Shown here in pieces: positions 2,838 through 60,034 of a DNA stretch of 64,000 bases (positions are counted from its first letter, which is position 1; the number at the start of each line of letters is the position of its first letter). Origin of the DNA: a virus. The stretch is from positions 32,001 through 96,000 of the IMG/VR virus record IMGVR_UViG_3300005663_000028. One strand, written 5' to 3'. The notes under the pieces are model-generated. The model was given only the letters and a program-made list of their open reading frames with translations. It ran no database searches and was not told the origin of the DNA. The translations under genes and the position numbers were made by a program.

Positions 2838-2838
2838 T

Positions 2839-2847
2839 GGTGTATAA
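2839..2847 (+). promoter_or_regulatory. GGTGTATAA putative phage late-promoter motif (before portal)
   Basis: One of nine exact + strand copies, all upstream of gene starts. Confidence 0.7.
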
Positions 2848-2898
2848 TCAATAGAACTGTATTACGATTGTAATTGGATTAAACAAGAAGGAAATAAA

Positions 2899-26749: not shown

Positions 26750-28675
26750 ATGAACATCAAACAACTAGAAAAAGCAAGTGCTACATATTATACTGGCAGT
26801 CCTATAATGACTGACGCCGAATTTGATGCGGCTATAGCCGAATTGCGTCAAAATGATCCAGATCACCCATTCTTGAAACGCATCGGCGCACCAACCCCCG
26901 GAACTGTTAAGGCTAAGCATCAAATTCCTATGGGTAGCTTAGCCAATGCAAACAACGAAAAAGAACTCAAAACGTGGATACTTAGATGTGAATTAGCCAT
27001 ACCACACTCTACTTCTGCCTTGTGTCTATCGCACAAACTGGACGGCTCTTCCCTAGAACTTATTTACGAGAACGGTTCATTTGTGCAGGCAATTACTCGT
27101 GGAGACGGGGAAGAGGGGGAGGATGTAACTAAAAATGTCCTACTTTCAAGAAATGTTCCTCTCTCGGTTAATCCATCAATAACTTCCGTTAGGTGTGAAT
27201 GTTTGATCCATAAGAAGGACTGGGCGGAACATTTCGGGGGAGATGCAAATCCGAGAAATTCTGCCGCTGGAACACTACGAAGACATGATGGTAAAAATGC
27301 TCAATATCTTCGCTTTTATGCATTTGATATGATGGTAAATGGTGATGTTCCAAACTCCGAGACCACCAGAATGTTGGTTTTAGCAAAATGGTTCAATGTT
27401 CCAAATAACTTGTTCGTATCCTCCAACGAAAAAGCATATTTACCAGAACATACACAATTGGGGTACACGATAAATTGGTGTAAAGAACAGGAAACAAAAA
27501 GAGACAACTTTCCGTATGAAATTGACGGTGTTGTTGTTAAAATAGACAACCGCGAAATATCAGAACAATTAGGAATTACGGACAATCGCCCAAAGGGACA
27601 AATCGCCGTCAAATTCGAGCCCCGTGGTGGCGAAACCATCCTAAACAATGTGGTGTGGCAAGTGGGTCATACGGGCGAGATAACCCCCGTGGGAAAGGTG
27701 AACCCAGTGGGCGTCGGTGGAGTCACAGTCCGCAGTGCTAACCTATACAACACGGACGAGATTGAGAGACTGGGGATACGCATTGGAGATACAGTAGAAG
27801 TAGTACGAGCCGGAGATGTAATTCCCAAGGTCACCAAACTCGTTTGTTCTAGTACAGATGGTGTCGAGATCAAACCTCCGAAGAAGTGCCCGGAGTGTGG
27901 AAGCAAGACAGAAAAAGATGGGGTTAGGCTTTATTGTCAAAATAGATGGTGTGGTGGTCGATCATTTGCCCGTGTTATGACATGGATTAAAAAGCGAAAT
28001 ATCCTACACATAGGAGAAGGTTTGGTTGAGTCTGCCGCAATAGACGAGACTCGTCAATTGTATGTTCTGTCTTATGCCGACTGGGCTAGGGTCAAGGTGG
28101 GTAATGGTGTGTGGGGTAAAAAAAGAGCAAGTAGTGTTGTGGCGGCTTTGGAGAAATCAAAGAATGTTACACTAGCTGATTTCTTGGGTTCCATCGGAAT
28201 ACCAGGAATTGGTAGAACGTTGACTCGTCAATTATGTGATAGTCTAGATGATAGACCCAATAGCCAATTAACGCTCAGCGATATGTTTCAGTTACTACCG
28301 TCACTAATAATGAAACAGGCGGGGTTTGGAGAATCTAGAGCCAATGATTTTTGTAATTGGTTGAAAGAATACAGAGAAGAAATTAGTGATCTGGCTTTGT
28401 TTATGAATTTTGAGGAGGAAGTAAAAATGGAAAGCGACAACAGGCAGTTTGATGGAGAAGTAATTTGTTTTACCGGTAAGTCTCCAAGGCCGCGTGTGGA
28501 GATGAGTCAATTGGCAGAATCCGCTGGTGCTTCAGTTAGTAGTTCTGTGAGTTCAAAAACAACTATCCTTGTCATAGCTGATGTTGAGAGTCAATCGAAA
28601 AAGGCGGTTAAGGCGAGAGAAATGGGAGTCAGGCTGATGTCCCCCGAAGATTTTTTGGATTTTTGTGGGATATAG
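26750..28675 (+). CDS. ligA: NAD-dependent DNA ligase
   Basis: Adenylation motif HKLDG, AITRGDGEEGEDVT, YEIDGVVVKID, C4 zinc finger, C-terminal BRCT. Confidence 0.95.
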   Translation: MNIKQLEKASATYYTGSPIMTDAEFDAAIAELRQNDPDHPFLKRIGAPTPGTVKAKHQIPMGSLANANNEKELKTWILRCELAIPHSTSALCLSHKLDGSSLELIYENGSFVQAITRGDGEEGEDVTKNVLLSRNVPLSVNPSITSVRCECLIHKKDWAEHFGGDANPRNSAAGTLRRHDGKNAQYLRFYAFDMMVNGDVPNSETTRMLVLAKWFNVPNNLFVSSNEKAYLPEHTQLGYTINWCKEQETKRDNFPYEIDGVVVKIDNREISEQLGITDNRPKGQIAVKFEPRGGETILNNVVWQVGHTGEITPVGKVNPVGVGGVTVRSANLYNTDEIERLGIRIGDTVEVVRAGDVIPKVTKLVCSSTDGVEIKPPKKCPECGSKTEKDGVRLYCQNRWCGGRSFARVMTWIKKRNILHIGEGLVESAAIDETRQLYVLSYADWARVKVGNGVWGKKRASSVVAALEKSKNVTLADFLGSIGIPGIGRTLTRQLCDSLDDRPNSQLTLSDMFQLLPSLIMKQAGFGESRANDFCNWLKEYREEISDLALFMNFEEEVKMESDNRQFDGEVICFTGKSPRPRVEMSQLAESAGASVSSSVSSKTTILVIADVESQSKKAVKAREMGVRLMSPEDFLDFCGI

Positions 28676-28694
28676 GGGTTGGTTAGACGTATAA

Positions 28695-28719
28695 TAAGGT
28701 ATCGGGGGTACCCGATCCC
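28695..28719 (+). repeat. bulged-hairpin element copy 1, just after a TATAAT box
   Basis: TAAGGTATCGG-GGGTAC-CCGATCCC. Confidence 0.7.
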
Positions 28720-28746
28720 GGAGCTTTCACATTTTGGAGACCTAAG

Positions 28747-28932
28747 ATGGATGACGACATAAAAGGGTTCTTTGTTGGATTGGTAGTTGGGTTAATCATA
28801 ATGGCAATAACGATATCGTCTCCGTTCGTGGGTTGCAGATCAGACTTTCAGAAAGAAGCAATTGGGAATGGATGTGGAAAACTGAACTGCGATATAAACG
28901 GTGCGTGTGAATTTGAATGGAATTGCGAATAG
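28747..28932 (+). CDS. small membrane protein
   Basis: N-terminal hydrophobic segment, Cys-rich tail. Confidence 0.5.
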   Translation: MDDDIKGFFVGLVVGLIIMAITISSPFVGCRSDFQKEAIGNGCGKLNCDINGACEFEWNCE

Positions 28933-28942
28933 GAGAGATTAG

Positions 28943-29020
28943 ATGGGTTGTTGTACTCTTAGTTTTATCCTTGGTGTGCTTGTTATGGCCATTATAGCAG
29001 GAATGATTGTTCGTAAGTAA
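28943..29020 (+). CDS. 25-aa hydrophobic peptide (MGCCTLSFILGVLVMAIIAGMIVRK)
   Basis: RBS AGGAG; fills gap; below track cutoff. Confidence 0.5.
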   Translation: MGCCTLSFILGVLVMAIIAGMIVRK

Positions 29021-29033
29021 CAGGAGGGACGGT

Positions 29034-29198
29034 ATGAGAAAAACAATGACACCAGAAGAAGTATCGCAAAAATGTTTTGAACAATTTTCCAATTTAACGA
29101 TAAATGTGTCTGATGAAGATAGATGGGAAGCTGCGGCAGAACTTCAGGCTACCCTTGAGGGTGTCTTGATGGAAAGAGATGAACTGAATAATGAGTAG
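29034..29198 (+). CDS. hypothetical protein
   Basis: RBS AGGAGG before ATG 29034. Confidence 0.55.
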   Translation: MRKTMTPEEVSQKCFEQFSNLTINVSDEDRWEAAAELQATLEGVLMERDELNNE

Positions 29199-29243
29199 TA
29201 GCCGAAGAAAAACAGAAACTGTTACGGTAAGGTCTCCCGTTAA

Positions 29244-29597
29244 ATGTCCTCATTGTGGGGAAAACTGTTTAAGGAGCATCGAATGACAACAACAAGAGAT
29301 GGACACCAACTGTCAATTGGTGAGAAATACACGGTAGTATCATTTGTTGAGGATACTCAAGATATTGAGTCGACAACCGAGTGTATCTATTGGGGCAATT
29401 GGGTTCAAGACAATACTCATTGTTTAGGTGCCATGGGAAATAGTTGTTCTGGTTGGTTCCCACAGACCCTTAATATACATCGTTTTATCCCGATAGATGT
29501 CGATGAGAACTTTGAGCTTATAAAATGTGAGGTTGGAGAATTGGTAGTCAAACACCCATCTGTAATAGAGTCGGTTGTTGTAAGGCGACTTAAGTAA
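29244..29597 (+). CDS. hypothetical protein
   Basis: Co-oriented ORF in small-gene cluster. Confidence 0.5.
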   Translation: MSSLWGKLFKEHRMTTTRDGHQLSIGEKYTVVSFVEDTQDIESTTECIYWGNWVQDNTHCLGAMGNSCSGWFPQTLNIHRFIPIDVDENFELIKCEVGELVVKHPSVIESVVVRRLK

Positions 29598-29657
29598 TAT
29601 CTAGGGGGAGCCCAGAGCCCTCCACTTTTGTGTCTTGCTAACTCCAAAGGAGAAAAA

Positions 29658-29810
29658 ATGGACGACAATAAAAAAATCGAAATGATTTCAATTCCTATCA
29701 CTACATATAATCAACTGATTAAAGATCGGGAGTGGTTAGAAGCATTAGAGGCTGCTGGGGTGGATAACTGGGAGGGTTGTGATGTGGCCCGCGAATCTCT
29801 CGACAACTAA
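29658..29810 (+). CDS. conserved small phage protein
   Basis: RBS AAGGAG; WLEALEAAGVDNWEG motif recalled from many phage hypotheticals. Confidence 0.6.
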   Translation: MDDNKKIEMISIPITTYNQLIKDREWLEALEAAGVDNWEGCDVARESLDN

Positions 29811-29979
29811 GGTGTATCCCGATAACAGAACGGTTATCGTAAGAAACGTTGATCCAGAATGTGTCCCTGACTGGTTAGAATGGGGTTATTTGCTCTGTCG
29901 AATGGCTAATTTTGGTACTTTGACAATTGATCCATTGACGAAGAGACCAAAGAACTGTGGTATAGTGGTATTGAAATGA
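29779..29979 (+). CDS. hypothetical protein
   Basis: Fills gap; stop overlaps hpt start. Confidence 0.4.
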   Translation: MMWPANLSTTKVYPDNRTVIVRNVDPECVPDWLEWGYLLCRMANFGTLTIDPLTKRPKNCGIVVLK

Positions 29980-30551
29980 AAACACTAATAAGTGAACAAC
30001 AACTTCAGACCAGAATTACGGAAATGGCTCTTGAGATCGATTCGTATTACATGGCTCAGGAGTGGTATCGGAACACACAAGAGCCAGTGATTGTTGTTGG
30101 TGTATTAACAGGTGCTTTATTTTTCATGGCTGATTTGATTCGGAAATTATCCATTCGTATCGAACTTGATTTTATGAGGGTATCAACGTATCCAGGCAAG
30201 GCAACAGTAGCCCAGAAACCAAAAATTATTACTCCACCAGACAGATCATTGCGAGATGCTCATATATTATTGGTAGATGATATCCTGGATACCGGTAAGA
30301 CAATTAAGGTGGTAAAAAAATGGTTGTCATGGCCAGTTCCTGAAGATATATGGACTTGTGTATTACTACGTAAGCCGGATAAGAATTCTGAAGTAAAAGC
30401 AGATTTTGTGGGGTTTGATGTTCCTGATGAGTTTTTGATAGGATATGGATTGGATCACGACGGAAAATTTAGAGAAATGCCATACGTGGCATTTCTTTCA
30501 GAAGAGGAGATGAGTAATGAATCTTTCGCAAGCAAGAAAGAAGTTAGATGA
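29976..30551 (+). CDS. hpt: hypoxanthine(-guanine) phosphoribosyltransferase
   Basis: VGVLTGALFFMADL, PRPP-binding LLVDDILDTGKT, ADFVGFDVPDEFLIGYGLD. Confidence 0.92.
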   Translation: MKTLISEQQLQTRITEMALEIDSYYMAQEWYRNTQEPVIVVGVLTGALFFMADLIRKLSIRIELDFMRVSTYPGKATVAQKPKIITPPDRSLRDAHILLVDDILDTGKTIKVVKKWLSWPVPEDIWTCVLLRKPDKNSEVKADFVGFDVPDEFLIGYGLDHDGKFREMPYVAFLSEEEMSNESFASKKEVR

Positions 30552-30825
30552 AATTAGTAAATCTACTGGAACTAAACACGTAAAGGTGTTGGTAAGTGAA
30601 CTGTGCAAAGTATTGCACTCAGTACTAAGTGCGATAGAACGTATTGAAAAATCTATGCATCCTTTGCAGACAATTACTTTTCCGAAACAGAACCCAGTGC
30701 CGCCAACTGAGACGGGTCTCCCTACAACAAACCCCATTGATCCACCGTTTACTCCAAGGCCATTTAGGTCTCCACCAATTAAAGACCCATTTGATGCAAG
30801 GCAGCTTGAGGGGGATTCAGAGTAG
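30517..30825 (+). CDS. Pro-rich hypothetical protein
   Basis: Fills gap between hpt and RNA ligase with overlapping start/stop. Confidence 0.5.
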   Translation: MNLSQARKKLDEISKSTGTKHVKVLVSELCKVLHSVLSAIERIEKSMHPLQTITFPKQNPVPPTETGLPTTNPIDPPFTPRPFRSPPIKDPFDARQLEGDSE

Positions 30826-31793
30826 TGTTCAACACGCCGGAACATACATGTGATATTGTCGAGGTACGGCTAGAGCCGCATCCGAATGCCGATAAGCTAA
30901 GTTTGGTCCGGGTCGGCGATTATCAATGTGCGGTGAGAACAACCGATTGGTCCGATGGAGACCTTGCTGTTTTTATTCCTCCGGACAGTGTTGTGCCAGA
31001 CACCAAAGAGTTTGAGTTTTTAGGCAAACACCGTCGCATTAAGGCCCGCAAGCTACGGGGTGAGTGGTCGGTTGGTTTGTTAATTCCGGCACCTGTTGGG
31101 GCTGATCTTGGACAGGACTGTATGGAGATGTTGGGGATAGTTCATTATGAGCCGCAAGTACACGGGCATTTTTCGACGGGTGGAGACAATGTAACACCAC
31201 CAGAAGGATTTTTCCCAAAGTATGATGTATTAAATTTCCGCAAGTACTCCGATCTGTTTGGTGATGGGGAGGAAGTTGTTGTTACCGAAAAAATACACGG
31301 TGCGAATGCACGTTTTGTTTGTGTCAATGATACTATGTATTGCGGTTCTCGTAGCAACTGGAAAAGGATGGACCCCAATAATCTGTGGTGGAAAGTTTTG
31401 GAACGACATCCTGCACTGGAGGCATGGCTACGACACAATTATGGGTGGGGTATTTATGGAGAAGCTTTCGGGCAGGTTCAGAATTTGAAATACGGCGCTG
31501 TACCCGATAATGACATTTTCTTTGCAACTTTCGATATTCTTGATGGAAATAGGTGGATGGACTTTGACGAGGCCCGTAGTGTTGGGGCTCCTCTTCCTTG
31601 GGTTCCATTGGTTTATAGAGGGCCTTTTGATAAAGATAAGATTCTTGCGATGGCAGAAGGGGATAGTTTGTGGCCCGGAGCGAATCATCATCTTGAGGGC
31701 GTGGTCGTAAAACCAGTAAAGGAACGGACTGATCGTCGACTTGGAAGGGTGCAATTGAAGATAGTAGGAAATAAATATCTTTCCAAAAGCTAA
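30825..31793 (+). CDS. RNA ligase, Rnl2/DRB0094-like with N-terminal OB (tRNA-binding-like) domain
   Basis: N-terminal PHPNADKL; nucleotidyltransferase motifs TEKIHGAN, IYGEAFG, FDI, EGVVVKP, QLK. Confidence 0.9.
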   Translation: MFNTPEHTCDIVEVRLEPHPNADKLSLVRVGDYQCAVRTTDWSDGDLAVFIPPDSVVPDTKEFEFLGKHRRIKARKLRGEWSVGLLIPAPVGADLGQDCMEMLGIVHYEPQVHGHFSTGGDNVTPPEGFFPKYDVLNFRKYSDLFGDGEEVVVTEKIHGANARFVCVNDTMYCGSRSNWKRMDPNNLWWKVLERHPALEAWLRHNYGWGIYGEAFGQVQNLKYGAVPDNDIFFATFDILDGNRWMDFDEARSVGAPLPWVPLVYRGPFDKDKILAMAEGDSLWPGANHHLEGVVVKPVKERTDRRLGRVQLKIVGNKYLSKS

Positions 31794-31814
31794 GGTATCG
31801 GACAAGCCGATCCC
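31791..31814 (+). repeat. bulged-hairpin element copy 2
   Basis: TAAGGTATCGG-ACAAG-CCGATCCC overlapping the RNA ligase stop. Confidence 0.7.
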
Positions 31815-31833
31815 ATGGAGGAGAAGCACAGAC

Positions 31834-31995
31834 ATGTGGTGTAGCAGAGAAAAAAGACAAAAACGGAAAAGAGCTATTCGCGAAAAAGCACTTAAGAACT
31901 TATCTTCGGAGCAATTTGGCGAACTAGCAGGTTATCTATATAAAGAGGGGTTGATAGGGTTAGACCTTAAGCCCATAAAACAAAGAAAGGAATAA
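31834..31995 (+). CDS. 53-aa basic hypothetical protein
   Basis: RBS GGAGGAG; MWCSREKRQKRKRAIRE...; below track cutoff. Confidence 0.45.
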   Translation: MWCSREKRQKRKRAIREKALKNLSSEQFGELAGYLYKEGLIGLDLKPIKQRKE

Positions 31996-31998
31996 ATA

Positions 31999-32445
31999 AT
32001 GCCATACATTAAAGAAGAAGAACGAGAAAAGTACGATCACCTAATAGATAAGCTAGCCGTTATTTTCAACGGTCTAGATGGTAATGATGAATTAAGCGGT
32101 GATCTCAACTATGTTATTTTTCGTCTAGCTTATCTTCTGACCCACACTCAAACGGGTGGAAAACGCAAGTACGCCAGAATGGCCGTGGTCCTATCAGCCC
32201 TGAACGAAGCTGGGGAAGAATTTCGGCGGCGAATTATGGGTCCATATGAAGATGAGGCAATAACCAAAAACGGGGATGTGCAGTTGAAGCCGCAACATCA
32301 GTTATTAAAGCCATCCAGCGTTCAGTGGTGTCCTAATTGTCCTGGGGGAAAGATCGTACAAGACCCTCACTGGCTAGGCCGTCTCCTTTGTTGGAAATGT
32401 CGATCTAATTGGGGTAAAGAAGAAAAAATAGAAGGAATAAATTGA
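31999..32445 (+). CDS. conserved phage hypothetical (MPYIK...GDLNY...YEDEAITKNGDV) with C-terminal zinc ribbon
   Basis: Recognisable phage motif plus CPNC...CWKC tail. Confidence 0.6.
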   Translation: MPYIKEEEREKYDHLIDKLAVIFNGLDGNDELSGDLNYVIFRLAYLLTHTQTGGKRKYARMAVVLSALNEAGEEFRRRIMGPYEDEAITKNGDVQLKPQHQLLKPSSVQWCPNCPGGKIVQDPHWLGRLLCWKCRSNWGKEEKIEGIN

Positions 32446-32458
32446 TAAGGAGAAAGTT

Positions 32459-32758
32459 ATGTTGAGAGTAACAATTGGTGAAGATGAGTTTCAAGTTTGG
32501 TTTTCACATCCAGTTCAAAAACCATTTGAAATTGAAGGGTTAACTGGACGTATAGTTGATGATGATCGTAGATGTACGATAGTACAAATCAGGCAAAACG
32601 GAGCTTTTGGAAGTCAAGGGGTCGCTGTTTGTAATCCCAATGACAATTTTCGCAAGGCAACTGGAAGAAAAATAGCACTTGCTGACGCCATGTGGGATTT
32701 TAATAAGGACGAACGAATAGCGATATGGAATGAATATCATAAACATTGTAGTCTCTAA
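32459..32758 (+). CDS. small conserved phage protein (GxAxCxxxDNFxKxxGRKIAL)
   Basis: Motif GVAVCNPNDNFRKATGRKIALADA; RBS AAGGAG. Confidence 0.55.
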   Translation: MLRVTIGEDEFQVWFSHPVQKPFEIEGLTGRIVDDDRRCTIVQIRQNGAFGSQGVAVCNPNDNFRKATGRKIALADAMWDFNKDERIAIWNEYHKHCSL

Positions 32759-32769
32759 GGGGAAATAAG

Positions 32770-33897
32770 GTGGGATACAGATATTGTGTTTTTGGGGCCG
32801 GTCGTCAGGGCACTGCCGTCATTTATGACTTGGTGAAATTCTGTGAAGCCGATTGGGTGGTTGTTTATGAACCGAGCGACAGGTCTCGTCGACTGGCACA
32901 TGAAAAACTTAACAGCCTACTGGAAGATGACTACGACAAGGTTCTTTGGGTATCAACGCTAGATGATAGACGAACACCAAAAATAGACTGGAAATCGTTC
33001 GATGTCATGATCAGTTGTGCTCCATGGAAGGAAAATCTCGGTTTGACGGAATTTGCAGTTCGGTGGAATACACCATTTTGTGACCTGGGAGGACATCCTG
33101 AAACCGTAGCTAGACAAGAAAATGTTATCACGGACACAGCGATCGTTCCAGATTGTGGGTTGTCTCCTGGTATCTCGAATATTCTGGCAGTTCATCTGGC
33201 AAAGCTCGGGTACGATAACATACAGGTGAGGTGTGGAGGTATTCCCATGGGGAATACTTCTGTTGGTGAATTTAACCAGGGTCTATGTTATCGCTTAACT
33301 TTTGATCCGACGGGACTAATTAGTGAGTATAGTGGTCGTGTACCTATAATAATCAGTGGTGAATTAAAGTATATTGAGTCGTTGTCAACAATAGAGCTAT
33401 ACAAAGATGGAAGATATGAGTGTGCTCCTACCTCGAACAACTCTCCCCAGGTTGTTCAGACTCTTTTGGATTTGGGTGTAAAGTACTATAACTACATGAC
33501 TATTAGACATAAGGGGCACTGGAATTTGGTGAAGGGATGGAAGGCTGCTGGTTTTTTAAGTGGTAATAAGAAAGCAGATGCGTATTTGGTCGAAGTTTTG
33601 GGTGAAAACCCACTTTTGAAGTATGATCCTGAAAAACATGTTGATAAGGTGTTATTGAATATATCTGGTACACGGGGCGAAAATTCGCTTAAACAAACTG
33701 GGGGTTTTGATTTTCTTGTTCTCGCCGATCCAGAAACAAAGTTCTCAGCAATGGAACAAATGACGTCTTGGGGTATAACTATGGTAGCTCATTATATGGC
33801 TACTAGAAATGGTACACCCAATAAATTTGCAACACCAGAACGGTTTGTCTCAGGGGATTGGATTTTAGAAGGATTGAACAAACGATTGCCATCGTAG
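32770..33897 (+). CDS. saccharopine dehydrogenase / lysine 6-dehydrogenase family oxidoreductase
   Basis: Rossmann VFGAGRQG, DLGG, DCGLSPGISN, RCGGIP, LTFDPTGLISEYSG. Confidence 0.8.
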   Translation: MGYRYCVFGAGRQGTAVIYDLVKFCEADWVVVYEPSDRSRRLAHEKLNSLLEDDYDKVLWVSTLDDRRTPKIDWKSFDVMISCAPWKENLGLTEFAVRWNTPFCDLGGHPETVARQENVITDTAIVPDCGLSPGISNILAVHLAKLGYDNIQVRCGGIPMGNTSVGEFNQGLCYRLTFDPTGLISEYSGRVPIIISGELKYIESLSTIELYKDGRYECAPTSNNSPQVVQTLLDLGVKYYNYMTIRHKGHWNLVKGWKAAGFLSGNKKADAYLVEVLGENPLLKYDPEKHVDKVLLNISGTRGENSLKQTGGFDFLVLADPETKFSAMEQMTSWGITMVAHYMATRNGTPNKFATPERFVSGDWILEGLNKRLPS

Positions 33898-33913
33898 AAA
33901 TTAAACAACTTGT

Positions 33914-33985
33914 GCCCGCTAAGCATAGATAGCGATGCGCTGGTTTTGTAAATCAGGGAGGTTGGTGCATGTCCGACAGTGGGCT
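33914..33985 (+). tRNA. tRNA-Thr(UGU), non-canonical D and T loops
   Basis: Acceptor GCCCGCT/AGTGGGC; anticodon arm CTGGT-TTTGTAA-ATCAG; T arm GTTGG-TGCATGT-CCGAC. Confidence 0.7.
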
Positions 33986-34001
33986 TAGTGGAAAAGAGGC
34001 T

Positions 34002-34574
34002 ATGAGAGCCGCAGCTATTCGTGGCAACGAGACACGAAGAGTACGTAATAGAAATAATTATGCAATGAACCTAAAATTTTGTGCTCATTGTGATCGGCAA
34101 TTGGCTTACACCAAACGACACAATCGTTTCTGTAATCACTCGTGTGCCGCTTCTGCGAATAACTTAGGTGTGACACGACACAGTAAGTACATCAAAAGGC
34201 CGTGTGATCTATGTGGAGAAATAACTAGAAACCCAAAATTTTGTTCTACGAGGTGTTGTTGTGACTACATAAAGAAGTTGGCGAAACCGAATATTACAAT
34301 AAATGGGTGTTTTTTGACATCGCTTGCTGCTAAAAGGTATTTATTGAGAATTTATGGCAATACCTGTTCTGTGTGCGGCTTATCAGAGTGGAATAATAAA
34401 CCAATGTCGATATGTATTGATCATATAGATGGGAATTATCAGAACCACAGTATCGCAAATGTTAGGTTGATTTGTCCAAATTGTGACGCGCAAACGGATA
34501 CGTATAAGGGGAGGAATCGAGGCAATGGACGACATGCTCGTATGGAACGATATCACAAGGGGTTGAGTTACTGA
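34002..34574 (+). mobile_element. HNH endonuclease
   Basis: CSVCGLSEWN...IDHIDGN...NVRLICPNCDAQT; start moved to ATG 34002 because the track start lies inside the tRNA. Confidence 0.85.
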
Positions 34575-34590
34575 AAGTTGAGGTGAAAAA

Positions 34591-34764
34591 ATGTTTGTTT
34601 TATTGCTGTCTATATTTGGAGTTTGGATGTTTATGTCTTTATTGGCCCTGGCGTCAGACGTTAGAGATGGACTTGGAGACGGAAGATTTATCTGGTTGTT
34701 TGGTTATCCAGGGGATCGGTTATATGAATTATCTAAAAAACTCTTCATTGTTAGAAATAGATAA
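34591..34764 (+). CDS. 57-aa membrane protein
   Basis: RBS GAGGTG; MFVLLLSIFGVWMFMSLLALASD...; TAATG coupling to next gene. Confidence 0.55.
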   Translation: MFVLLLSIFGVWMFMSLLALASDVRDGLGDGRFIWLFGYPGDRLYELSKKLFIVRNR

Positions 34765-35147
34765 TGCTTGTTTTTATTCTAGAAGATGATCCTGTACGCA
34801 TGGAGAAATTCATCAGAGAATTATCGTGTGATGAAATACATCATGTAGAAACAGTAGACGCTGGAAAAGAACTGTTATTAAAGAATAAATACGATCTTCT
34901 TTTACTAGATCATGATTTGGGTGGAGAACAAATGGTAGACTCGTGGAAACAGAATACTGGTTATCAACTTGCCAAGTTTATTCCAAAAACACAAAATAAA
35001 GATACACCATGTATTACACATACCTGTAATCCTGCTGGGGCAGACAATATTTTGAGTGTACTTCCACACGCAATTAAAGTACCATTTCCGTCACTCAATA
35101 TCGCCGCTATTGGTGAATTTGTAGAACAACACAAACAAGGGATGTAA
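34764..35147 (+). CDS. stand-alone receiver-like domain (cyclic-phosphate-processing receiver type)
   Basis: FILEDD...LLLLDHDLG...TGYQLAKFI...THTCNPAG. Confidence 0.7.
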   Translation: MLVFILEDDPVRMEKFIRELSCDEIHHVETVDAGKELLLKNKYDLLLLDHDLGGEQMVDSWKQNTGYQLAKFIPKTQNKDTPCITHTCNPAGADNILSVLPHAIKVPFPSLNIAAIGEFVEQHKQGM

Positions 35148-35150
35148 AAC

Positions 35151-35411
35151 ATGGGTCAAAGTCAAAAAAAGAAAAAACAAAAACGTAAAGAACAAAAGAG
35201 GGAAGTGGTGGAAATACCAGTTATTGGCCCTATTGATCAAGAAATATTAGATTCAATAGGTAATCCAAATGCTTGGACTCCAAAAATTGAAGATACTTGG
35301 ATCAGGGAACTTCGGAAATTGTCTGGGTATGAAATTTATAGCAGATTTCCGCCGATGCGAAAACCTCCGAATGTTCGTACAAGAGGTAATAGTTCTGGAT
35401 GGGGAGGATAG
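35151..35411 (+). CDS. basic hypothetical protein
   Basis: Co-oriented; RBS AAGGG. Confidence 0.45.
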   Translation: MGQSQKKKKQKRKEQKREVVEIPVIGPIDQEILDSIGNPNAWTPKIEDTWIRELRKLSGYEIYSRFPPMRKPPNVRTRGNSSGWGG

Positions 35412-35413
35412 TC

Positions 35414-35608
35414 ATGTATAGAGTTTTGTTGATTATTTGTTTGGTATTGGGTTGTTGTGGGTGTAATTTACTTGAAATCGCTACGAGTGATATCAATGGT
35501 TGGGACATGAGTGCATGTGTGTCCGGTTTCGATACATGTTGGGAACTCTGGAGTGATAATGCCGATAAATTCGAAGGAGGGTTCGTAGATGCTCTGGAAG
35601 GGCTCTAG
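35414..35608 (+). CDS. putative lipoprotein
   Basis: RBS GGAGG; signal-like MYRVLLIICLVLGCCGC. Confidence 0.5.
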   Translation: MYRVLLIICLVLGCCGCNLLEIATSDINGWDMSACVSGFDTCWELWSDNADKFEGGFVDALEGL

Positions 35609-35637: not shown

Positions 35638-35925
35638 TTGTGTCTAGCTAAGGGTCGAGAGACCCCCGAATCCGTAAGGAGGCTTAAAATAGATACGTTA
35701 AAAGTAGAACTGGAATATTTCGAGCAACACCGAAAAGAGTGGTGTAAGCACCATTTAGGTAAAGTTGCTGTAATTAGCGGAACCATCTTGCATGGTTTTT
35801 ACGATACCTGTGAAGCGGCTTTAGAGGTGGGGTATGATAAGTGTGGTGTTGACCAACCCTTTCTCATTAAAGAGGTGCGTATTAAAGATAAAGTAGTACT
35901 TATTACTCGTCTTCTGGGGTTTTAA
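35638..35925 (+). CDS. DUF5678-like small protein
   Basis: ELEYFEQHRKEW...GKVAVI...GFYDT...A...GY...PFLIKEV. Confidence 0.5.
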   Translation: MCLAKGRETPESVRRLKIDTLKVELEYFEQHRKEWCKHHLGKVAVISGTILHGFYDTCEAALEVGYDKCGVDQPFLIKEVRIKDKVVLITRLLGF

Positions 35926-36467
35926 TGAGTACAAAAAATACCCATAGACAAAAATACCCTCATTTTGGCAAGAAGGGTGATAGTCCACACAAACATTATT
36001 CAAATAGAGCAGAGATAATCAAAAAGAAGGGTGGAGATATGCCAAATGAGGTTTTCGAATCTGATGGGGGTCAAATACAAAAACACGCAGAAAATCCTAG
36101 TTGGGAATTTGACGACAGCGATTTAATAAAGATGTATTATTGGCGAGATCGATGTCGTCTAGCAGAAAAATTGATACAACACGTTTTAACTAGAAAAGAT
36201 GTTGGTAGGGCGTTACATATACACGGCCTTGAAGAAAAACTTAGGAAACTACAAGAGGAAATGACTCATCAAAGAATTGCCGCAGAGGTCCGAAATAAAC
36301 AGCTTAAAGCTGCCAATATGATTGTGTGTTGTACTGGAGGTTGTGAAGGTGGAATTATCGGGTCTTCAGATAAGGTAGAAGAGGAGTTAGTCGTCGAAGT
36401 CGAGCGCACAGCCAAGAGATTGAGGCAATGGTGGGAAAATCGTAAGCACCGATTGTCTCAAGAATAG
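35925..36467 (+). CDS. hypothetical coiled-coil protein
   Basis: TAATG-coupled to upstream ORF; followed by terminator. Confidence 0.5.
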   Translation: MSTKNTHRQKYPHFGKKGDSPHKHYSNRAEIIKKKGGDMPNEVFESDGGQIQKHAENPSWEFDDSDLIKMYYWRDRCRLAEKLIQHVLTRKDVGRALHIHGLEEKLRKLQEEMTHQRIAAEVRNKQLKAANMIVCCTGGCEGGIIGSSDKVEEELVVEVERTAKRLRQWWENRKHRLSQE

Positions 36468-36495
36468 CTTGCCTGCCATGTGTAGGTGGAGTAAC

Positions 36496-36527
36496 AGTGT
36501 CGTTTTCGGACGACACTAGATTTTTTT
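36496..36527 (+). terminator. intrinsic terminator
   Basis: AGTGTCGTT-TTCG-GACGACACT followed by T7. Confidence 0.75.
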
Positions 36528-36563
36528 ATTTTTTTGGGACAAAATGGTGAGTTAGGGGTATAA

Positions 36564-36599
36564 TAAGGTATCGAGGTATCGGGGAGTACCACCGATCCC
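36564..36599 (+). repeat. bulged-hairpin element copy 3, just after a TATAAT box
   Basis: TAAGGTATCG-AGGTATCGG-GGAGTACCA-CCGATCCC. Confidence 0.65.
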
Positions 36600-36605
36600 G
36601 ATTAT

Positions 36606-36677
36606 GGTTTTGGTAGCTCAGTTTGGTAGAGCAACGGGTCGCACCTGTGGTCGTTGGTTCAAATCCAACCCAAACCA
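36606..36677 (+). pseudogene. tRNA-like element with shortened anticodon arm
   Basis: Canonical TAGCTCAGTTTGGTAGAGC D arm and GTTGG-TTCAAAT-CCAAC T arm; anticodon arm only 15 nt; acceptor has a bulge. Confidence 0.6.
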
Positions 36678-36755
36678 TTTGTTGTCTGCCAGGGGCAGGG
36701 AATCCATAAAGGCTTGGCCACGGAGCCGTATCTGTGGTGATTTGGGGAATAATCA

Positions 36756-36896
36756 ATGAAAAGTTTGTGTACACAATTAAGTGACAAGGATGCTCAGATA
36801 TTTCTGGAGATGTTGCAGGATGATTCTGAACCCAACGAGGCACTTAAAGCCGCTGCGATACGGTACGTATCGCCATTTGGTGGTGATGCGGGCTAG
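36756..36896 (+). CDS. 46-aa TacA/DUF1778 antitoxin C-terminal-like peptide
   Basis: RBS GGGGA; LSDKDAQIFLEMLQDDSEPNEALKAAA; below track cutoff. Confidence 0.6.
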   Translation: MKSLCTQLSDKDAQIFLEMLQDDSEPNEALKAAAIRYVSPFGGDAG

Positions 36897-36970
36897 GGTT
36901 TATTCTTTTAATTAAGATTGGACTTTGGCTCGTGGGAGACTGCGGATCTTTTTTTGTTAGATATAGGACT

Positions 36971-37609
36971 ATGAAAACAACAACAGTTAATATTCGTCGT
37001 AGTGAATATGATGTATATATCGGCCGTGCTGGGCATGGCCACGATGGTATTTTCGGCAATCCATTCAGTGGTATCCGAGACGGTGGACGCGAGAAAGCAA
37101 TTGCGTTATACCGAAAATACTTTTTGGAACGATTAAAAAATGATCAAGAATTTGTTGCACAGGTAGAAAAATTAAAGGGTAAGCGGCTTGGTTGTTTCTG
37201 TAAACCAAAGGCTTGTCATGGGGATGTGATAGTTGAGTATTTGGAGAAACCAATGAAAGTGGTGATATGTGGAGATCGTAATTGGTCGGATGAATCTATT
37301 ATTTGTGAAAGATTACATAAACTTCCTTCCGATACTATCATTATCCAGGGGGAGTGTGACGGTGCAGATACTTTAGCCGGGGATCTTGCTAGGGAAATAG
37401 GACTTGATGTTGTCGGGTTCTATGCCAATTGGACTAGGCACGGTAAGGCTGCTGGGCCAATCAGAAATATTAGGATGTTGAATACGAAACCGTCTTTGGT
37501 AATTGCATTCCATAATGATTTGAGTAAGTCTAAGGGGACTAAGCACATAGTCAATGAAGCAAGGAAACGAGGAATTGAAGTGGAGGTTATTGAAGATAAT
37601 GTTGAATGA
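36971..37609 (+). CDS. DUF4326 + SLOG (DUF2493/YspA-like) fusion
   Basis: YIGR...FGNPF...LKGKRLGCFCKPKACHGDV, then VVICGDR...QGECDGAD...HGKAAGPIRN...KGT. Confidence 0.75.
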   Translation: MKTTTVNIRRSEYDVYIGRAGHGHDGIFGNPFSGIRDGGREKAIALYRKYFLERLKNDQEFVAQVEKLKGKRLGCFCKPKACHGDVIVEYLEKPMKVVICGDRNWSDESIICERLHKLPSDTIIIQGECDGADTLAGDLAREIGLDVVGFYANWTRHGKAAGPIRNIRMLNTKPSLVIAFHNDLSKSKGTKHIVNEARKRGIEVEVIEDNVE

Positions 37610-37874
37610 AATAATTGATTTTTTGAACGAAGCCGTAAAGCAAGATAGTGAATCTGTCGACAATGTGTTTCGAAAGATAAGTGTTCCCGCTACTCAAGAA
37701 ATGATTGAACACCCAACTATTGTAGTTACAATGGATGGTAAGTTAAGGTTAATTGGATTAATAAATGGTTTTATGGAGGAGGGTGGTAATCGCCTAGCTA
37801 TGACAATTGATGATGAAACGGGTAAGATCACTGGATTCTGCGCCGTAACATCACAAGAACTGGGATTAGGATAG
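37554..37874 (+). CDS. hypothetical protein
   Basis: Likely start ATG 37599; phage-type GLINGF motif. Confidence 0.5.
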   Translation: MKQGNEELKWRLLKIMLNEIIDFLNEAVKQDSESVDNVFRKISVPATQEMIEHPTIVVTMDGKLRLIGLINGFMEEGGNRLAMTIDDETGKITGFCAVTSQELGLG

Positions 37875-37893
37875 ATCATGGAAAGAAAGGTGG

Positions 37894-38181
37894 TTGAATA
37901 AGATGTTGGAATGTTGTCTACCCAGTGATCAGATGGTTGAGGTATTGTTCAAGGGCGAAAAAGAAAAAGCTAAATTAGCTATTGCCGCAGCTTTTACAGA
38001 GACCGGAACTCACCTGATATTGATTCTCGCAGACGGTAAACAGCGTACTGTACCAATATCTATTTTTACGGACAATCCGGTTGCAGTGCCAAACTTTAAC
38101 ACTTTAGAGCTTTGTGACTATGGACGTACTGTTAAATTTGGCACATATGAAGCGGCAGTAGATTTTGCTTTGAAATACTGA
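37894..38181 (+). CDS. DUF2442-like small protein (tentative)
   Basis: LILILADGKQRTVPISIF...DYGRTVKFG. Confidence 0.4.
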   Translation: MNKMLECCLPSDQMVEVLFKGEKEKAKLAIAAAFTETGTHLILILADGKQRTVPISIFTDNPVAVPNFNTLELCDYGRTVKFGTYEAAVDFALKY

Positions 38182-38252
38182 CTGTAGCGTAGTCTGGCCA
38201 ACGCGCCGCGTTTGGGACGCGGAGATCGCAAGTTCGAGTCTTGCCAGTCAGA
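38178..38252 (+). tRNA. tRNA-Pro(UGG)
   Basis: CTGACTG/CAGTCAG acceptor, A73, anticodon arm CCGCG-TTTGGGA-CGCGG, TTCGAGT T loop. Confidence 0.9.
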
Positions 38253-38274
38253 ATCTTGAAGGGGAAAGGGGATT

Positions 38275-38439
38275 ATGAGAAAATTAATTCGTAAATTTGT
38301 TTGCTGGCTAATCGGCTGTAACTACATTTGTCTTCATCGTTTTGTGATCGAACGTGATTACAATCTCAGTTCCACTGTAAGTGGATGGCAATGTATCCGG
38401 TGCGACAATCGTAGACACGAACAGTGGGATGATGTGTGA
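38275..38439 (+). CDS. 54-aa Cys/His protein
   Basis: MRKLIRKFVCWLIGC...CIRC; purine-rich RBS; below track cutoff. Confidence 0.5.
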   Translation: MRKLIRKFVCWLIGCNYICLHRFVIERDYNLSSTVSGWQCIRCDNRRHEQWDDV

Positions 38440-38759
38440 TGAATAAAATACCGAAACTAGGAAAAGACTGTGAACAACACCTGTACTCAGAATACTTTGG
38501 ATGTAGATGTACAAGTAATGAGCACCTTGTGTTGTTCACTCTTGATGCTTATGATCCTCAATATGTTGAGTTTTGCGTATCAGTTAAAATGAATCAATAT
38601 CATGGATTTTTTGCAAAACTCTGGGTTGCAGTGAAATATCTGTTTGGTCGTAAATGTAAGGATGCGGTTGATCATTGGGATACTGTTATGCTGAAAATTG
38701 AAGATGTTGATCGGTTAATTGAAATGCTACAAAAGTATAAAAGGCTATCTGAGGAGTAA
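38436..38759 (+). CDS. hypothetical protein
   Basis: Coupled start/stop; CRC...H motif. Confidence 0.5.
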   Translation: MMNKIPKLGKDCEQHLYSEYFGCRCTSNEHLVLFTLDAYDPQYVEFCVSVKMNQYHGFFAKLWVAVKYLFGRKCKDAVDHWDTVMLKIEDVDRLIEMLQKYKRLSEE

Positions 38760-38761
38760 GT

Positions 38762-39229
38762 ATGTCTTTGACGTCAAGCGACATTCATAAAGTAGTTCAT
38801 GAGCTTAGGTATAGCCAGGGTGGTAATGTTGCGGATAATGTGGAGGCATTTGTGATCAATACTGAAGACTTAAGAGATTTGTTAAGGCAAGATCAATTTT
38901 CTAATCAATTTCCCCTTTGGGGTACGGGTTGTGATCCTGGACAGTTGAAGATTTGTGGAATAAAGATTATAGATAGCCCATACATAGAGAAAGGTGTTGT
39001 TTTTAAGATGTTCAAAAATGACCCATTGTACAGAAATTTCACTGATTTCACACTCCCTCCCGAATGGCCGATAAAATATATACCTTCATCATCACCAACT
39101 GGTTCGGATAAGGATGAAATAGAAAAAATGAAATTGAAAATAAAAATCTTGGAGTTAGAAACTGGACCAGTAGTTAAGGAAAAATCTAAGAAGAAGTATA
39201 GCCAGACACGAAAGATTAAATTAGGTTAA
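38762..39229 (+). CDS. hypothetical protein
   Basis: RBS GAGGAG. Confidence 0.5.
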   Translation: MSLTSSDIHKVVHELRYSQGGNVADNVEAFVINTEDLRDLLRQDQFSNQFPLWGTGCDPGQLKICGIKIIDSPYIEKGVVFKMFKNDPLYRNFTDFTLPPEWPIKYIPSSSPTGSDKDEIEKMKLKIKILELETGPVVKEKSKKKYSQTRKIKLG

Positions 39230-39302
39230 GGGGGAGTAGCTCAGTTGGGAGAGCGTTGCCCTTGCAAGGCAAAGGCCGCCGGATCGTAGCCGGTCTCCTC
39301 CA
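39230..39302 (+). tRNA. tRNA-Ala(UGC)
   Basis: GGGGGAG/CTCCTCC acceptor with G3:U70, arm TTGCC-CTTGCAA-GGCAA; T loop ATCGTAG is atypical. Confidence 0.85.
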
Positions 39303-39322
39303 GTTACTCGAAAGGATAGAAA

Positions 39323-39526
39323 ATGTTATCAACAGAAAGAGGTGTTGCACTACAACATTTGTGTGAGCATCGCATTAACGACGCGGATGAATATGGTGCC
39401 GCATTAGAAATGATTGACTTTATAGCGACAGAAGAAAAACTCACCGACGACCAGAAACTGTTTACAGAAACTCTAATATCTATTGTTGATGAGTATGAGG
39501 AAAAACATTATCCTTATGGAAATTAA
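39323..39526 (+). CDS. HigA antitoxin N-terminal-like protein lacking the HTH
   Basis: INDADEYGAALEMID...TLISIVDEYEEKHYP. Confidence 0.65.
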   Translation: MLSTERGVALQHLCEHRINDADEYGAALEMIDFIATEEKLTDDQKLFTETLISIVDEYEEKHYPYGN

Positions 39527-39529
39527 ATT

Positions 39530-39547
39530 GGGTCGATAGCTCAGTAG
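39530..39547 (+). pseudogene. 5' tRNA remnant
   Basis: GGGTCGATAGCTCAGTAG (acceptor 5' strand plus half D arm) running into a TGTATAA motif. Confidence 0.4.
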
Positions 39548-39586
39548 TGTATAAACATATGCACTTACCACAAAATGGTGATATAA

Positions 39587-39769
39587 ATGCACAAAAAAGA
39601 AACTGGAATTCCGTGTTTTGAGTGTGGCAAGCGATCTGGGATAGATTGTCCTGGACGTAGACCAGACGAGGCTACTCGCTGTACTGTGTGTATGGAAGAG
39701 TTTATGGGGCGAATACGTAGAATTTCAGAAAAATATAAAGACTCACTGAAAAGACTAGCTGATTCTTAG
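39587..39769 (+). CDS. zinc-ribbon protein with Doc-partner-antitoxin-like C-terminal helix
   Basis: CFEC...CTVC then MEEFMGRIRRISEKYKDSLKRLADS. Confidence 0.45.
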   Translation: MHKKETGIPCFECGKRSGIDCPGRRPDEATRCTVCMEEFMGRIRRISEKYKDSLKRLADS

Positions 39770-39851: not shown

Positions 39852-39875
39852 ATTCATATATGTGAAAACACACAG

Positions 39876-39909
39876 AACCGGATGGTCCGATAGGGCTGTC
39901 CGGTTTTTT
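39876..39909 (+). terminator. intrinsic terminator upstream of tRNA-Gln
   Basis: AACCGGATGGTCC-GATA-GGGCTGTCCGGTT plus T-run. Confidence 0.75.
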
Positions 39910-39930
39910 ATTTGGAAAGCTTTCCGTTTT

Positions 39931-40002
39931 GGCCCTGTAGTGTAATGGAAACACAATAGTCTTTGAAACTAGAGATTCCTGGTTCGAGCCCAGGCAGGGC
40001 CG
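39931..40002 (+). tRNA. tRNA-Gln(UUG)
   Basis: GGCCCTG/CAGGGCC acceptor, G73, loop CTTTGAA, T arm CCTGG-TTCGAGC-CCAGG. Confidence 0.9.
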
Positions 40003-40014
40003 TTTTTCCTCCTT

Positions 40015-58509: not shown

Positions 58510-58982
58510 TCATTCCATCCATACATAACTTCGATAGCACGACACAAAAGGGTTCGTAATATACAGGCTTCCCCCTCACTTATTGCATGTCTTACTACGG
58601 TTTTCTGGTCATCTCTTTTGACGCTTAGGTGAATACGAAGCATCCTGTTTTTATCGTAACCAAAGTACAGAACAGCATTGCCTTTTGGATTAGAATGGAA
58701 AAGACCTTTATGCTTTTTCGACTCTTGGTCAATTGGTCCAACCCCATCTTTAATACCCATTAGAACAGTGAGAAGCTCACCAAGATCAGATTCCCCCAAC
58801 TTGAATGAAATTTTATTAGGCCAATCGAAATTTGCATTTCCATCTTTATCCTTGCCCTTCTGATTAGCCATTTCAAGAAAAACACAATCCTTTTTGGAAC
58901 CGAGACTCCACTGTGACGCCGCCCCATTACCATCGTTTTTTGCCTTATAGAGTATAAAGCTTTTACTGTATTTATCCGCCAT
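58506..58982 (-). CDS. Whirly/PC4-like ssDNA-binding protein
   Basis: LYKAK...AASQW...VFLEMA...FDWPNKISFKLGESDLGELL. Confidence 0.5.
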   Translation of the reverse strand: MADKYSKSFILYKAKNDGNGAASQWSLGSKKDCVFLEMANQKGKDKDGNANFDWPNKISFKLGESDLGELLTVLMGIKDGVGPIDQESKKHKGLFHSNPKGNAVLYFGYDKNRMLRIHLSVKRDDQKTVVRHAISEGEACILRTLLCRAIEVMYGWND

Positions 58983-60034
58983 TATTCCTTCTCCTTTGCT
59001 TCTTTCATTTCTCTCATTTTTGTAGATATCGCCAAAGCATCTTCATACGTTAATGATCTAAGATTAATATCTCCATCAGAACTGAGTTCGCATACAATGT
59101 TCAAGTCGCCCACAACCTTGTCTATAGAAAACCCTTGTCGTTCGGCTATCATGCGAATCATTGTAATTTGAGCCCCGTGGATGGCACCTCCAGGTTGAAC
59201 ATCAGCAGTAGCAGCAACAGTTTTACTGACTTCTTCTGCCGCAACAACACGTTTTAGACCCAAGGCGTTGCGATACACCCTACCCTTAGCCCTAGTATCT
59301 GCCATGGCAACCAAGTAAGTAGCGTAATCCTCGAAACAATTGGCGGCATTTGCATCAGCTAAAGCCTCAAACCTTTTTTCATAACCATTCTCGGTAAGGA
59401 ATACTACCCAAGCCTTTGCGCATGCCCTAAAATTGTTTTCTTCTGAAGGGGCTGCTATTAAATCGCATCCTTCCTCCATTATGACACCAACTAGTTCTCC
59501 AGCTATACGCCTCAACCCTTCTACCCTAGGATTCCCCTTATCCATTTCATCGTCATCAAATTTGCCCAAAACATATTGGGTCCATCTAGGATCACTGGGT
59601 GTGGGCGGAGCCGAATTGTATGTGTCAGCGGCGTCCTGTAGGGCTTCGTTCGGCTCCACGTCTTTGGTAACCACTTCTTTGAAAATATCTCGATCTCGAT
59701 TGGAAAGCTTCGTTTCTGGAACCTCATTTTTTACAACAACGTCCTGTATTGTCCCAACTACAGTCTCACTTTTTGTGTCTTGCTGAACAACAGCCTTAGC
59801 CTCAACCTTAATTCCCACATCATCGTCATCATCTTCTTCAACAACAACCTTCGTCAATTCTGAAAGTCCCTGTTCTCCACTTTGATGGGCCTTGAGTTTT
59901 GCGAGCAATTCCGGCCTCTTGAGCTTCTTCCCTTCGTCGTCAAGCAAATCCTTTTCACTATAACCACAAGAAAGCAACTTGACGGCTAATTGATTTTTAC
60001 TCATTTTTGTGGGCGATACTGTTTCGTCACTCAT
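58982..60034 (-). CDS. Rad52-like single-strand annealing protein
   Basis: PRVEGLRRIA...ADANAANC...MADTRAKGRVYRNALGL...AAEEV. Confidence 0.55.
   Translation of the reverse strand: MSDETVSPTKMSKNQLAVKLLSCGYSEKDLLDDEGKKLKRPELLAKLKAHQSGEQGLSELTKVVVEEDDDDDVGIKVEAKAVVQQDTKSETVVGTIQDVVVKNEVPETKLSNRDRDIFKEVVTKDVEPNEALQDAADTYNSAPPTPSDPRWTQYVLGKFDDDEMDKGNPRVEGLRRIAGELVGVIMEEGCDLIAAPSEENNFRACAKAWVVFLTENGYEKRFEALADANAANCFEDYATYLVAMADTRAKGRVYRNALGLKRVVAAEEVSKTVAATADVQPGGAIHGAQITMIRMIAERQGFSIDKVVGDLNIVCELSSDGDINLRSLTYEDALAISTKMREMKEAKEKE

Follow-up and report, generated by a model that had tools for sequence, protein, structure and literature searches.

We analyzed a stretch of 64,000 nucleotides from an uncultured phage (referred to below as the window), which corresponds to bases 32001-96000 of the 179,553-bp IMG/VR virus record IMGVR_UViG_3300005663_000028. 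The record is rated as complete by CheckV, and the terminase and portal genes of this ~180-kb phage are located at positions 723-5022. Between positions 35638 and 39769, the window contains a block of small open reading frames (ORFs) interleaved with tRNA genes. Three of these ORFs, starting at positions 36756, 39323, and 39587, encode peptides of 46-67 amino acids (aa) that resemble only the toxin-binding parts of antitoxins from three unrelated families of toxin-antitoxin (TA) systems of type II, namely TacA, HigA, and the antitoxins encoded upstream of Doc toxins. An earlier note on this DNA had described the block as an anti-TA island, in which several truncated antitoxins with neither toxin partners nor DNA-binding domains are combined with replacement tRNAs. 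Our analysis bears out the TacA-like and HigA-like assignments and, with moderate strength, the Doc-partner-like one. The features of the block and of its surroundings are listed in Table 1.

Table 1. Features of the antitoxin-like block, its surroundings, and the distant second TacA-type motif (positions are those of the window; nt, nucleotides)
Feature	Position	Strand	Remarks
NAD-dependent DNA ligase	26750-28675		upstream accessory block
RNA ligase (Rnl-type, PHA02142 OB domain)	30825-31793		upstream accessory block
Saccharopine-dehydrogenase-like enzyme	32770-33897		upstream accessory block
cREC receiver domain (cyclic-phosphate processing)	34764-35147		upstream accessory block
95-aa ORF	35638..35925	+	full-length, not truncated
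Sigma-70-like promoter GGGACA-17-TATAAT (predicted)	36536..36564	+	consensus scan only; just past terminator 36496-36517
tRNA-Ala (CGC)	36607..36677	+	ARAGORN, Rfam 46.2 bits
TacA/DUF1778 C-terminal toxin-neutralizing segment only, 46 aa	36756..36896	+	motif residues 7-38; without ribbon-helix-helix domain
DUF4326 + YAcAr (SLOG) fusion protein	36972..37609	+	likely true start ATG 36972; ORF listed from GTG 36932; follows the TacA-tail gene directly in all related contigs
92-aa 'DUF2442-like' ORF	37903..38181	+	similarity not significant
tRNA-Pro (UGG)	38178..38252	+	ARAGORN, Rfam
tRNA-Ala (UGC)	39230..39302	+	ARAGORN, Rfam
HigA N-terminal (toxin-binding/dimerization) domain only, 67 aa	39323..39526	+	three-helix bundle
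Zinc ribbon + Doc-antidote-type C-terminal helix, 60 aa	39587..39769	+	CxxC...CxxC ribbon at residues 10-35; C-terminal helix at residues 36-58, encoded by nt 39692-39760
tRNA-Gln (UUG)	39930..40003	+	preceded by strong terminator-like hairpin 39874-39907
350-aa protein P0128 with TacA-type toxin-neutralizing motif	58982..60034	-	motif residues ~107-139, nt 59618-59716

Antitoxin-like modules of the phage

The peptide encoded by ORF 36756 corresponds to the C-terminal segment of TacA. It matches the Pfam profile TacA1 (PF08681) with 22.5 bits against a cut-off of 21, and the match is confined to positions 48-78 of 80, the part of the profile that follows the ribbon-helix-helix (RHH) domain. 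The gene starts at the domain boundary, downstream of a tRNA gene, and the N-terminal RHH domain typical of TacA/DUF1778 is absent; a profile of the RHH half identified nothing in the whole phage genome (best E 0.21, to an unrelated ORF). The peptide is readily detected by a profile of acidobacterial TacA C-termini (47.6 bits, E 1.7e-13), and its top sequence matches in the PDB are a 36-aa TacA peptide crystallized with the toxin (7ak9_C) and the C-terminus of a DUF1778 chain (7zg5_C). Among 185,579 species genomes, loci with close relatives of the peptide were found only in two, both metagenome-assembled genomes of Acidobacteriota, one of them from Pyrinomonadales. At both loci, the peptide matches residues 61-90 of a 97-aa full-length TacA (67% identity, BLASTP E 1e-12), whose gene overlaps a gene for a 163-aa GNAT protein. 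At the metagenome loci the TacA-GNAT pair sits in a defence-island setting, flanked by a UvrD-PD-(D/E)XK helicase-nuclease on one side and a DNA methylase on the other; the order of helicase-nuclease, TacA-TacT, and then DNA methylase was observed on the acidobacterial contigs L004, L006 (841-4701), L007, and L008.

An exhaustive phmmer search against 1.84 billion representatives identified five short relatives of the peptide (47-76 aa), all of which match the TacA1 profile in its C-terminal part only. Three of the five are encoded directly upstream of a DUF4326 gene, as in this phage, and on one of the contigs RNA ligase and cREC genes are also present upstream of the TacA tail. These shared neighbors indicate that the relative contigs are syntenic kin of the phage. 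The tail is conserved in four related phage contigs and is 59-67% identical across the syntenic ones, with thirteen invariant alignment positions (L8, S9, D12, I15, F16, L17, L20, P26, N27, L30, A34, Y37, and G43) that include all toxin-contact positions; a scan of IMG/VR with the same alignment found no additional viral loci. In the KacA-KacT structure, the betaB-alphaC-alphaD region of KacA wraps the toxin and blocks acetyl-CoA binding and dimerization (PMC6698736). The complex-modelling check proposed along with the island gave a similar picture for the phage peptide, which was placed on the GNAT toxin encoded at 2675-3166 of contig L004 with an ipSAE of 0.79 (0.79, 0.79, and 0.49 in separate runs), compared with 0.01 for the best control. 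In calibration, 58 of 80 solved complexes and 2 of 110 mismatched pairs attained the ipSAE mark used here (run agreement of at least 0%, partner pLDDT of at least 55). The model thus supports the inferred binding of the TacA tail to a TacT-type GNAT toxin, and since homologous complexes have already been solved, such a pass may only mirror this likeness.

In the closest sequenced relative phage, L002, a short ORF has only its last residues and a 21-nt DNA stretch in common with the TacA-tail gene. This stretch, GGTGGTGATGCGGGCTAGGGT, is an exact match between positions 36879-36899 of the window and ~9531-9551 of L002, spanning the stop codon of the TacA tail, and L002 is otherwise diverged and higher in GC. 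In both phages, a weak hairpin and a run of T residues lie between it and the DUF4326 gene, and what is conserved here may be an RNA or a regulatory element instead of the protein end (GGDAG and stop). We also considered whether the TacA tail and the DUF4326-SLOG gene form a functional pair and rejected this, because the two have no known link and L002 has other ORFs inserted between both genes; their linkage was judged to be synteny among close relatives.

A second TacA-type motif is present far from the block, inside the 350-aa protein P0128. The profile of acidobacterial TacA C-termini detects it with 28.9 bits (E 1.2e-7), and P0128 matches the TacA of contig L006 with a BLASTP E-value of 6e-10. 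The motif is located between an acidic N-terminal region and a C-terminal domain; domain searches identified none in the rest of the protein. Directly downstream of P0128, a 158-aa protein (58506-58982, minus strand) has a sub-threshold match to the Whirly family of single-stranded DNA-binding proteins (E 2.7e-4).

ORF 39323 encodes an isolated counterpart of the HigA N-terminal domain, where the toxin-interaction and dimerization surfaces of SehB/HigA are located (PMC7160566). It ends three residues past a YEEKHYP motif (YE-x-x-HYP), the point at which HigA runs on into its helix-turn-helix (HTH) domain. The ORF has no Pfam match, and the HTH_3 (XRE) domain of HigA is missing; Pfam holds no model of the N-domain of E. 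coli HigA, in which only HTH_3 is detected. A PDB sequence search returned nothing significant, the match to residues 24-62 of E. coli HigA has a BLASTP E-value of 0.02, and a narrow profile of enterobacterial HigA N-domains missed the ORF, which came third with E 1.2. The AlphaFold2 model is a three-helix bundle (pLDDT 88), for which the top Foldseek match in the PDB is the E. coli HigA N-domain from 6kml, a HigBA complex, at an E-value of 2.1. Its structural neighbors in the ESM Atlas are mostly XRE proteins of 120-160 aa, in addition to a 73-aa cluster automatically named HigA. In VIA-align, generic three-helix bundles (Z ~7) outscore HigA (Z ~5), so the fold alone is not diagnostic.

The assignment to HigA is carried by acidobacterial sequences. 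A six-frame search of a 4.7-Mb Pyrinomonadales genome (G002) identified, as the best match to ORF 39323, the N-domain of a 136-aa HigA adjoining a 99-aa HigB (residues 3-64 aligned, BLASTP E 5e-5); these HigB and HigA proteins are related to those of E. coli with E-values of 5e-16 and 1e-13, respectively. A profile of the N-domain built from 25 acidobacterial HigA homologues was run against 3076 six-frame phage ORFs, and ORF 39323 scored 28.4 bits (E 1.7e-7) vs 5.9 bits for the next ORF and at most 10.1 bits for 2000 shuffles. Two unpublished genomes (G051 and G154) were counted in tallies only; all profiles used in this work were built without their sequences, and none of the claims depends on them.

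For the third family, Doc loci were gathered with TIGR01550 from 251 acidobacterial genomes (74 positive), and the ORF ending at each doc start was extracted. The antitoxins upstream of Doc (L117, L120, L129, L132, and others) differ in their heads, which are AbrB-like or RHH-like, and have one C-terminal tail in common (...R-E-D-R-D-x-L-R-K-L-A-E and variants). The occurrence of the same tail on both kinds of heads indicates that it behaves as a portable toxin-specific module. A profile built from the final 26 residues of 17 distinct tails ranks residues 36-58 of ORF 39587, at its extreme C-terminus, first among the phage ORFs (15.9 bits, E 0.0023, with 6.5 bits for the next ORF); 3000 shuffles reached no more than 6.8 bits, and the noise ceiling among 2589 unrelated acidobacterial ORFs was 10.3 bits. 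We grade this support as moderate because the motif is short. The head of ORF 39587 is a zinc ribbon with weak likeness to Elf1, in place of a Phd/YefM, AbrB, or RHH DNA-binding head, and a PDB sequence search found nothing significant.

Orphan status, candidate host and proposed role

No match to Acetyltransf_1, Acetyltransf_7, Fic, HigB-like_toxin (PF05015), or HigB_toxin (PF09907) was found in the whole 179,553-bp record. The lack of cognate GNAT, HigB, and Fic/Doc toxins noticed in the island thus extends to the entire phage, and the loss of DNA-binding domains holds for all three antitoxin pieces. As the phage itself encodes no toxin, the pieces most likely disarm suicide toxins of the host during infection. 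The Pyrinomonadales (Acidobacteriota) genome G002 contains a TacAT locus (L005), a HigBA locus (L011, with the HigB gene at 676-975 on the minus strand), and two Doc genes. As all three toxin types occur together in this genome, the antidote set of the phage mirrors a real TA repertoire, and we regard the lineage only as a lead to the host.

Based on these sequence comparisons, we consider it probable that the block belongs to an arsenal of orphan antidotes with which the phage counters host defences, and in which only the toxin-binding modules of three unrelated type II families have been kept. According to the proposed explanation, infection would shut off host gene expression, labile host antitoxins would decay, and phage-made modules would occupy the freed toxins and keep translation running. 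The TacA tail would wrap the GNAT toxin TacT, the HigA N-domain would bind the ribosome-dependent RNase HigB, and the helix carried by the zinc ribbon would act as does the module of antitoxins that partner the EF-Tu kinase Doc. What we infer here is that the toxins are bound and neutralized in vivo, as well as when the pieces are expressed and in which host. The island hypothesis of the earlier note is partly supported: the support covers the three families found as toxin-binding modules, with no toxin in the phage and matching toxins in the candidate host lineage, and does not extend to its two tentative members (see below).

Several observations weigh against a role of the pieces as antidotes. 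Phage L002 has neither the TacA motif nor the two HigA- and Doc-type genes. Word-index protein searches with ORF 39323 returned only itself, and tblastn against phages gave noise, so conservation cannot back the HigA piece; the Doc-tail match spans just 23 residues. As homodimerization is another function of the HigA N-domain, this piece could target a host antitoxin instead of a toxin. The link to Acidobacteriota is drawn only from which genomes hold the nearest antitoxin relatives. Finally, antitoxin-toxin pairs are usually highly specific, and cross-neutralization at 26-67% identity is thus not guaranteed.

A broader idea, which we put forward tentatively and with less than even expectation, is that phages carry modular 'antidote kits'. 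They would excise the toxin-gripping tails of unrelated type II antitoxins, mirror the TA arsenal of a host lineage, and keep the tails either bare or on neutral scaffolds such as a zinc ribbon or a 350-aa protein, with some transcribed together with tRNAs as a unit that protects translation. Under this idea, TacT, HigB, and Doc would be active anti-phage defences in Acidobacteriota, and kit content could predict hosts of uncultured phages.

The TacA piece shares with TacA/AtaR/KacA (DUF1778; GNAT-RHH type II systems) the C-terminal betaB-alphaC-linker-alphaD segment that wraps the toxin (L-S-x-x-D...F-L...P-N-x-x-L...A...Y); unlike these antitoxins, it is encoded by a phage with neither an RHH domain nor an adjacent toxin, and a second copy is located inside the 350-aa protein. 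The HigA piece has the three-helix N-domain of E. coli K-12-type HigA and Salmonella SehB (PDB 5IFG, 6KML, 6JQ4) with its HigB-binding surface and YE-x-x-HYP end, but stops where the HTH linker begins and has no higB gene. The Doc-type piece ends in the terminal amphipathic helix of Doc-upstream antitoxins, which are Phd-like in role (...R-x-x-R/K-x-x-L-R/K-R/K-L-A-D/E), whereas a CxxC...CxxC zinc ribbon replaces the DNA-binding fold at its head and no doc gene is present. Orphan antitoxins of phages that stand in for a host antitoxin in the absence of a toxin partner include the DarG-like AdfB/AdfM of T-even phages, Gp145 of ICP1, Dmd of T4, and pseudo-ToxI. Such counter-defence has been documented for the DarG-like enzymes (PMC11825919, PMC13716836) and for the mimics Gp145 and Dmd (PMC11825919, PMC11481870, PMC13716836; reviewed in PMC13728456), and a DarG-like phage case has also lost an N-terminal domain (PMC13728456). 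These are enzymes, non-homologous mimics, or RNA, whereas the phage studied here combines non-enzymatic fragments of three classical antitoxins. A DUF1778 match in Klebsiella phages has been tabulated and not taken further (PMC10100988). The HigA form consisting of the N-domain only, the Doc tail on a zinc ribbon, and the finding that a single genome holds three or four such modules together, with one candidate host lineage to match, are new here.

If the role of the pieces as antidotes is correct, the orphan-antitoxin principle would be extended from enzymes (DarG-like) to classical type II systems that act through protein-protein contacts, and toxin-binding tails would be portable modules that work without a DNA-binding head. 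It would also provide indirect evidence that GNAT/TacT, HigB, and Doc toxins restrict phages in nature. The three peptides are small candidate inhibitors that are directly testable, and comparing the antidotes of an uncultured phage with the TA systems of candidate hosts could become a way to predict its host.

tRNA genes and alternative explanations

The tRNA-Pro, -Ala, and -Gln genes reported among the ORFs were recovered as four genes on which ARAGORN and Rfam agree. When phage DNA was searched with the region, the matches were at the tRNA level only. The tRNA remnants mentioned along with them are represented by one visible tRNA-like 5' fragment, GGGTCGATAGCTCAGT (~39531-39546); the slightly longer GGGTCGATAGCTCAGTAGTG (39531-39550) resembles the start of a tRNA acceptor and D-arm without the remainder, and is probably what is left of a tRNA gene. 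A promoter-like motif, AGTGTATAA, comes directly after it. The TacA-tail gene begins 78 nt after tRNA-Ala(CGC), with one promoter-like site ahead of both that would drive their joint transcription, and the HigA piece begins 20 nt after tRNA-Ala(UGC).

The view that the tRNAs replace those damaged by TA toxins found no support. TacT acetylates charged tRNA, and extra tRNA genes would thus not escape it. None of the toxin specificities examined corresponds to the amino acids of the island tRNAs (Ala, Pro, Gln). In addition, four further tRNAs (Glu, Met, Leu, Tyr) are located near the far end of the phage genome, and no antitoxin-like Pfam matches were found among the ORFs of this second cluster.

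The best-surviving alternative contests only the functional island and leaves the antidote role of the pieces aside. It states that the antitoxin pieces and the tRNAs are mere neighbors in a hypervariable cargo region, the tRNAs serving codon supply or evasion of tRNA-cleaving defences, and we give it a slightly better than even chance. At the same position, between conserved flanks, the related phage L002 has other tRNAs (three Leu, Trp, Tyr, and Glu) and other cargo (radical SAM, RNA ligase-like, HNH). The codon preference of the phage fits most of its tRNAs (CAA 64%, GAA 70%, CCA 45%), as in ordinary supplementation, and tRNA-based escape from tRNA-cleaving defences has been documented (PMC13728456). 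Against mere neighborhood, the two antidote genes that closely follow a tRNA gene are apparently co-transcribed with it, and all three toxin classes attack translation. Given the different cargo of L002, the second tRNA cluster devoid of antitoxins, and the ordinary codon preference, the most likely reason for the co-location is that both kinds of genes share a hypervariable accessory region and transcripts, and not that one depends mechanistically on the other.

Alternatively, the pieces could be dominant-negative or decoy factors directed at host antitoxins or TA operators, which would deliberately set toxins free to shut down the host, or disturb the regulation of TA systems. A dominant-negative form would likewise have lost its DNA-binding domain, and the homodimerization determinants that the N-terminus of SehB/HigA carries in addition to the toxin interface could allow heterodimers with host HigA (PMC7160566). 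However, the TacA and Doc tails are toxin-contacting segments not known as dimerization elements (PMC6698736), the complex model puts the TacA peptide on the toxin, and freed translation toxins would harm a lytic phage, which together make decoys unlikely. Least likely of all, the pieces are decaying remnants of once captured TA modules with no present function: phages do acquire TA genes, the short ORF of L002 looks like decay in that phage, and for the HigA and Doc pieces there are no homologues in phages from which selection could be read, but three families are each cut exactly at a domain boundary with an intact frame and their own start, no RHH, HTH, or toxin remnant was found nearby or genome-wide, the TacA tail keeps its toxin-contact positions in the syntenic contigs, and its second copy is fused in frame into another protein.

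Tentative members and neighboring genes

Two further ORFs had been included in the island more cautiously. The DUF2442-like one, placed at 37894 (37903 in our annotation), was not confirmed. It has no Pfam (E of 1 or below) or NCBIfam match and nothing significant in a PDB sequence search; it ranks first for a local profile of acidobacterial DUF2442 (PF10387), at only 5.4 bits and E 2.6, and its AlphaFold2 model (pLDDT 44) is unusable for structure searching. ORF 35638, taken for a truncated DUF5678-like antitoxin, spans the whole length of DUF5678 proteins, and we found no description of DUF5678 as an antitoxin in the literature. Neither Pfam nor a local profile of the family (PF18929) matched it; one weak in-register pairwise match to a DUF5678 protein (E 0.016 among 7693 ORFs) and DUF5678 clusters among its ESM Atlas neighbors suggest that it is possibly a distant relative of this family. 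Six-frame searches of five acidobacterial genomes with ORFs 35638, 37903, and 39587 gave chance matches only. In the acidobacterial island of contig L006, a DUF5678 protein and an aspartyl-protease-like gene are inserted among the helicase-nuclease, TacA-TacT, and DNA methylase genes, and the two may form an undescribed two-gene module.

The genes upstream of the block and the DUF4326-SLOG fusion, for which a role in the processing of ADP-ribose derivatives has been predicted (PMC9503650), suggest a wider setting. The ligases, the cREC protein, and the fusion protein (26750-35147 and 36972-37609) surround the island as an RNA/nucleotide-conflict toolkit, which fits a larger region for counter-defence and RNA repair. 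Midway through the tRNA/antidote block, a 107-aa ORF (38436-38759) matches phrog_12660, annotated as 'virion structural protein' (E 1.7e-6). Just upstream of ORF 35638, a 69-aa ORF (35399-35608) has a lipoprotein-type signal (…LVLGCCGC…) and is conserved in L002 (8166-8387); its product may be a spanin or a lipoprotein that acts in superinfection exclusion.

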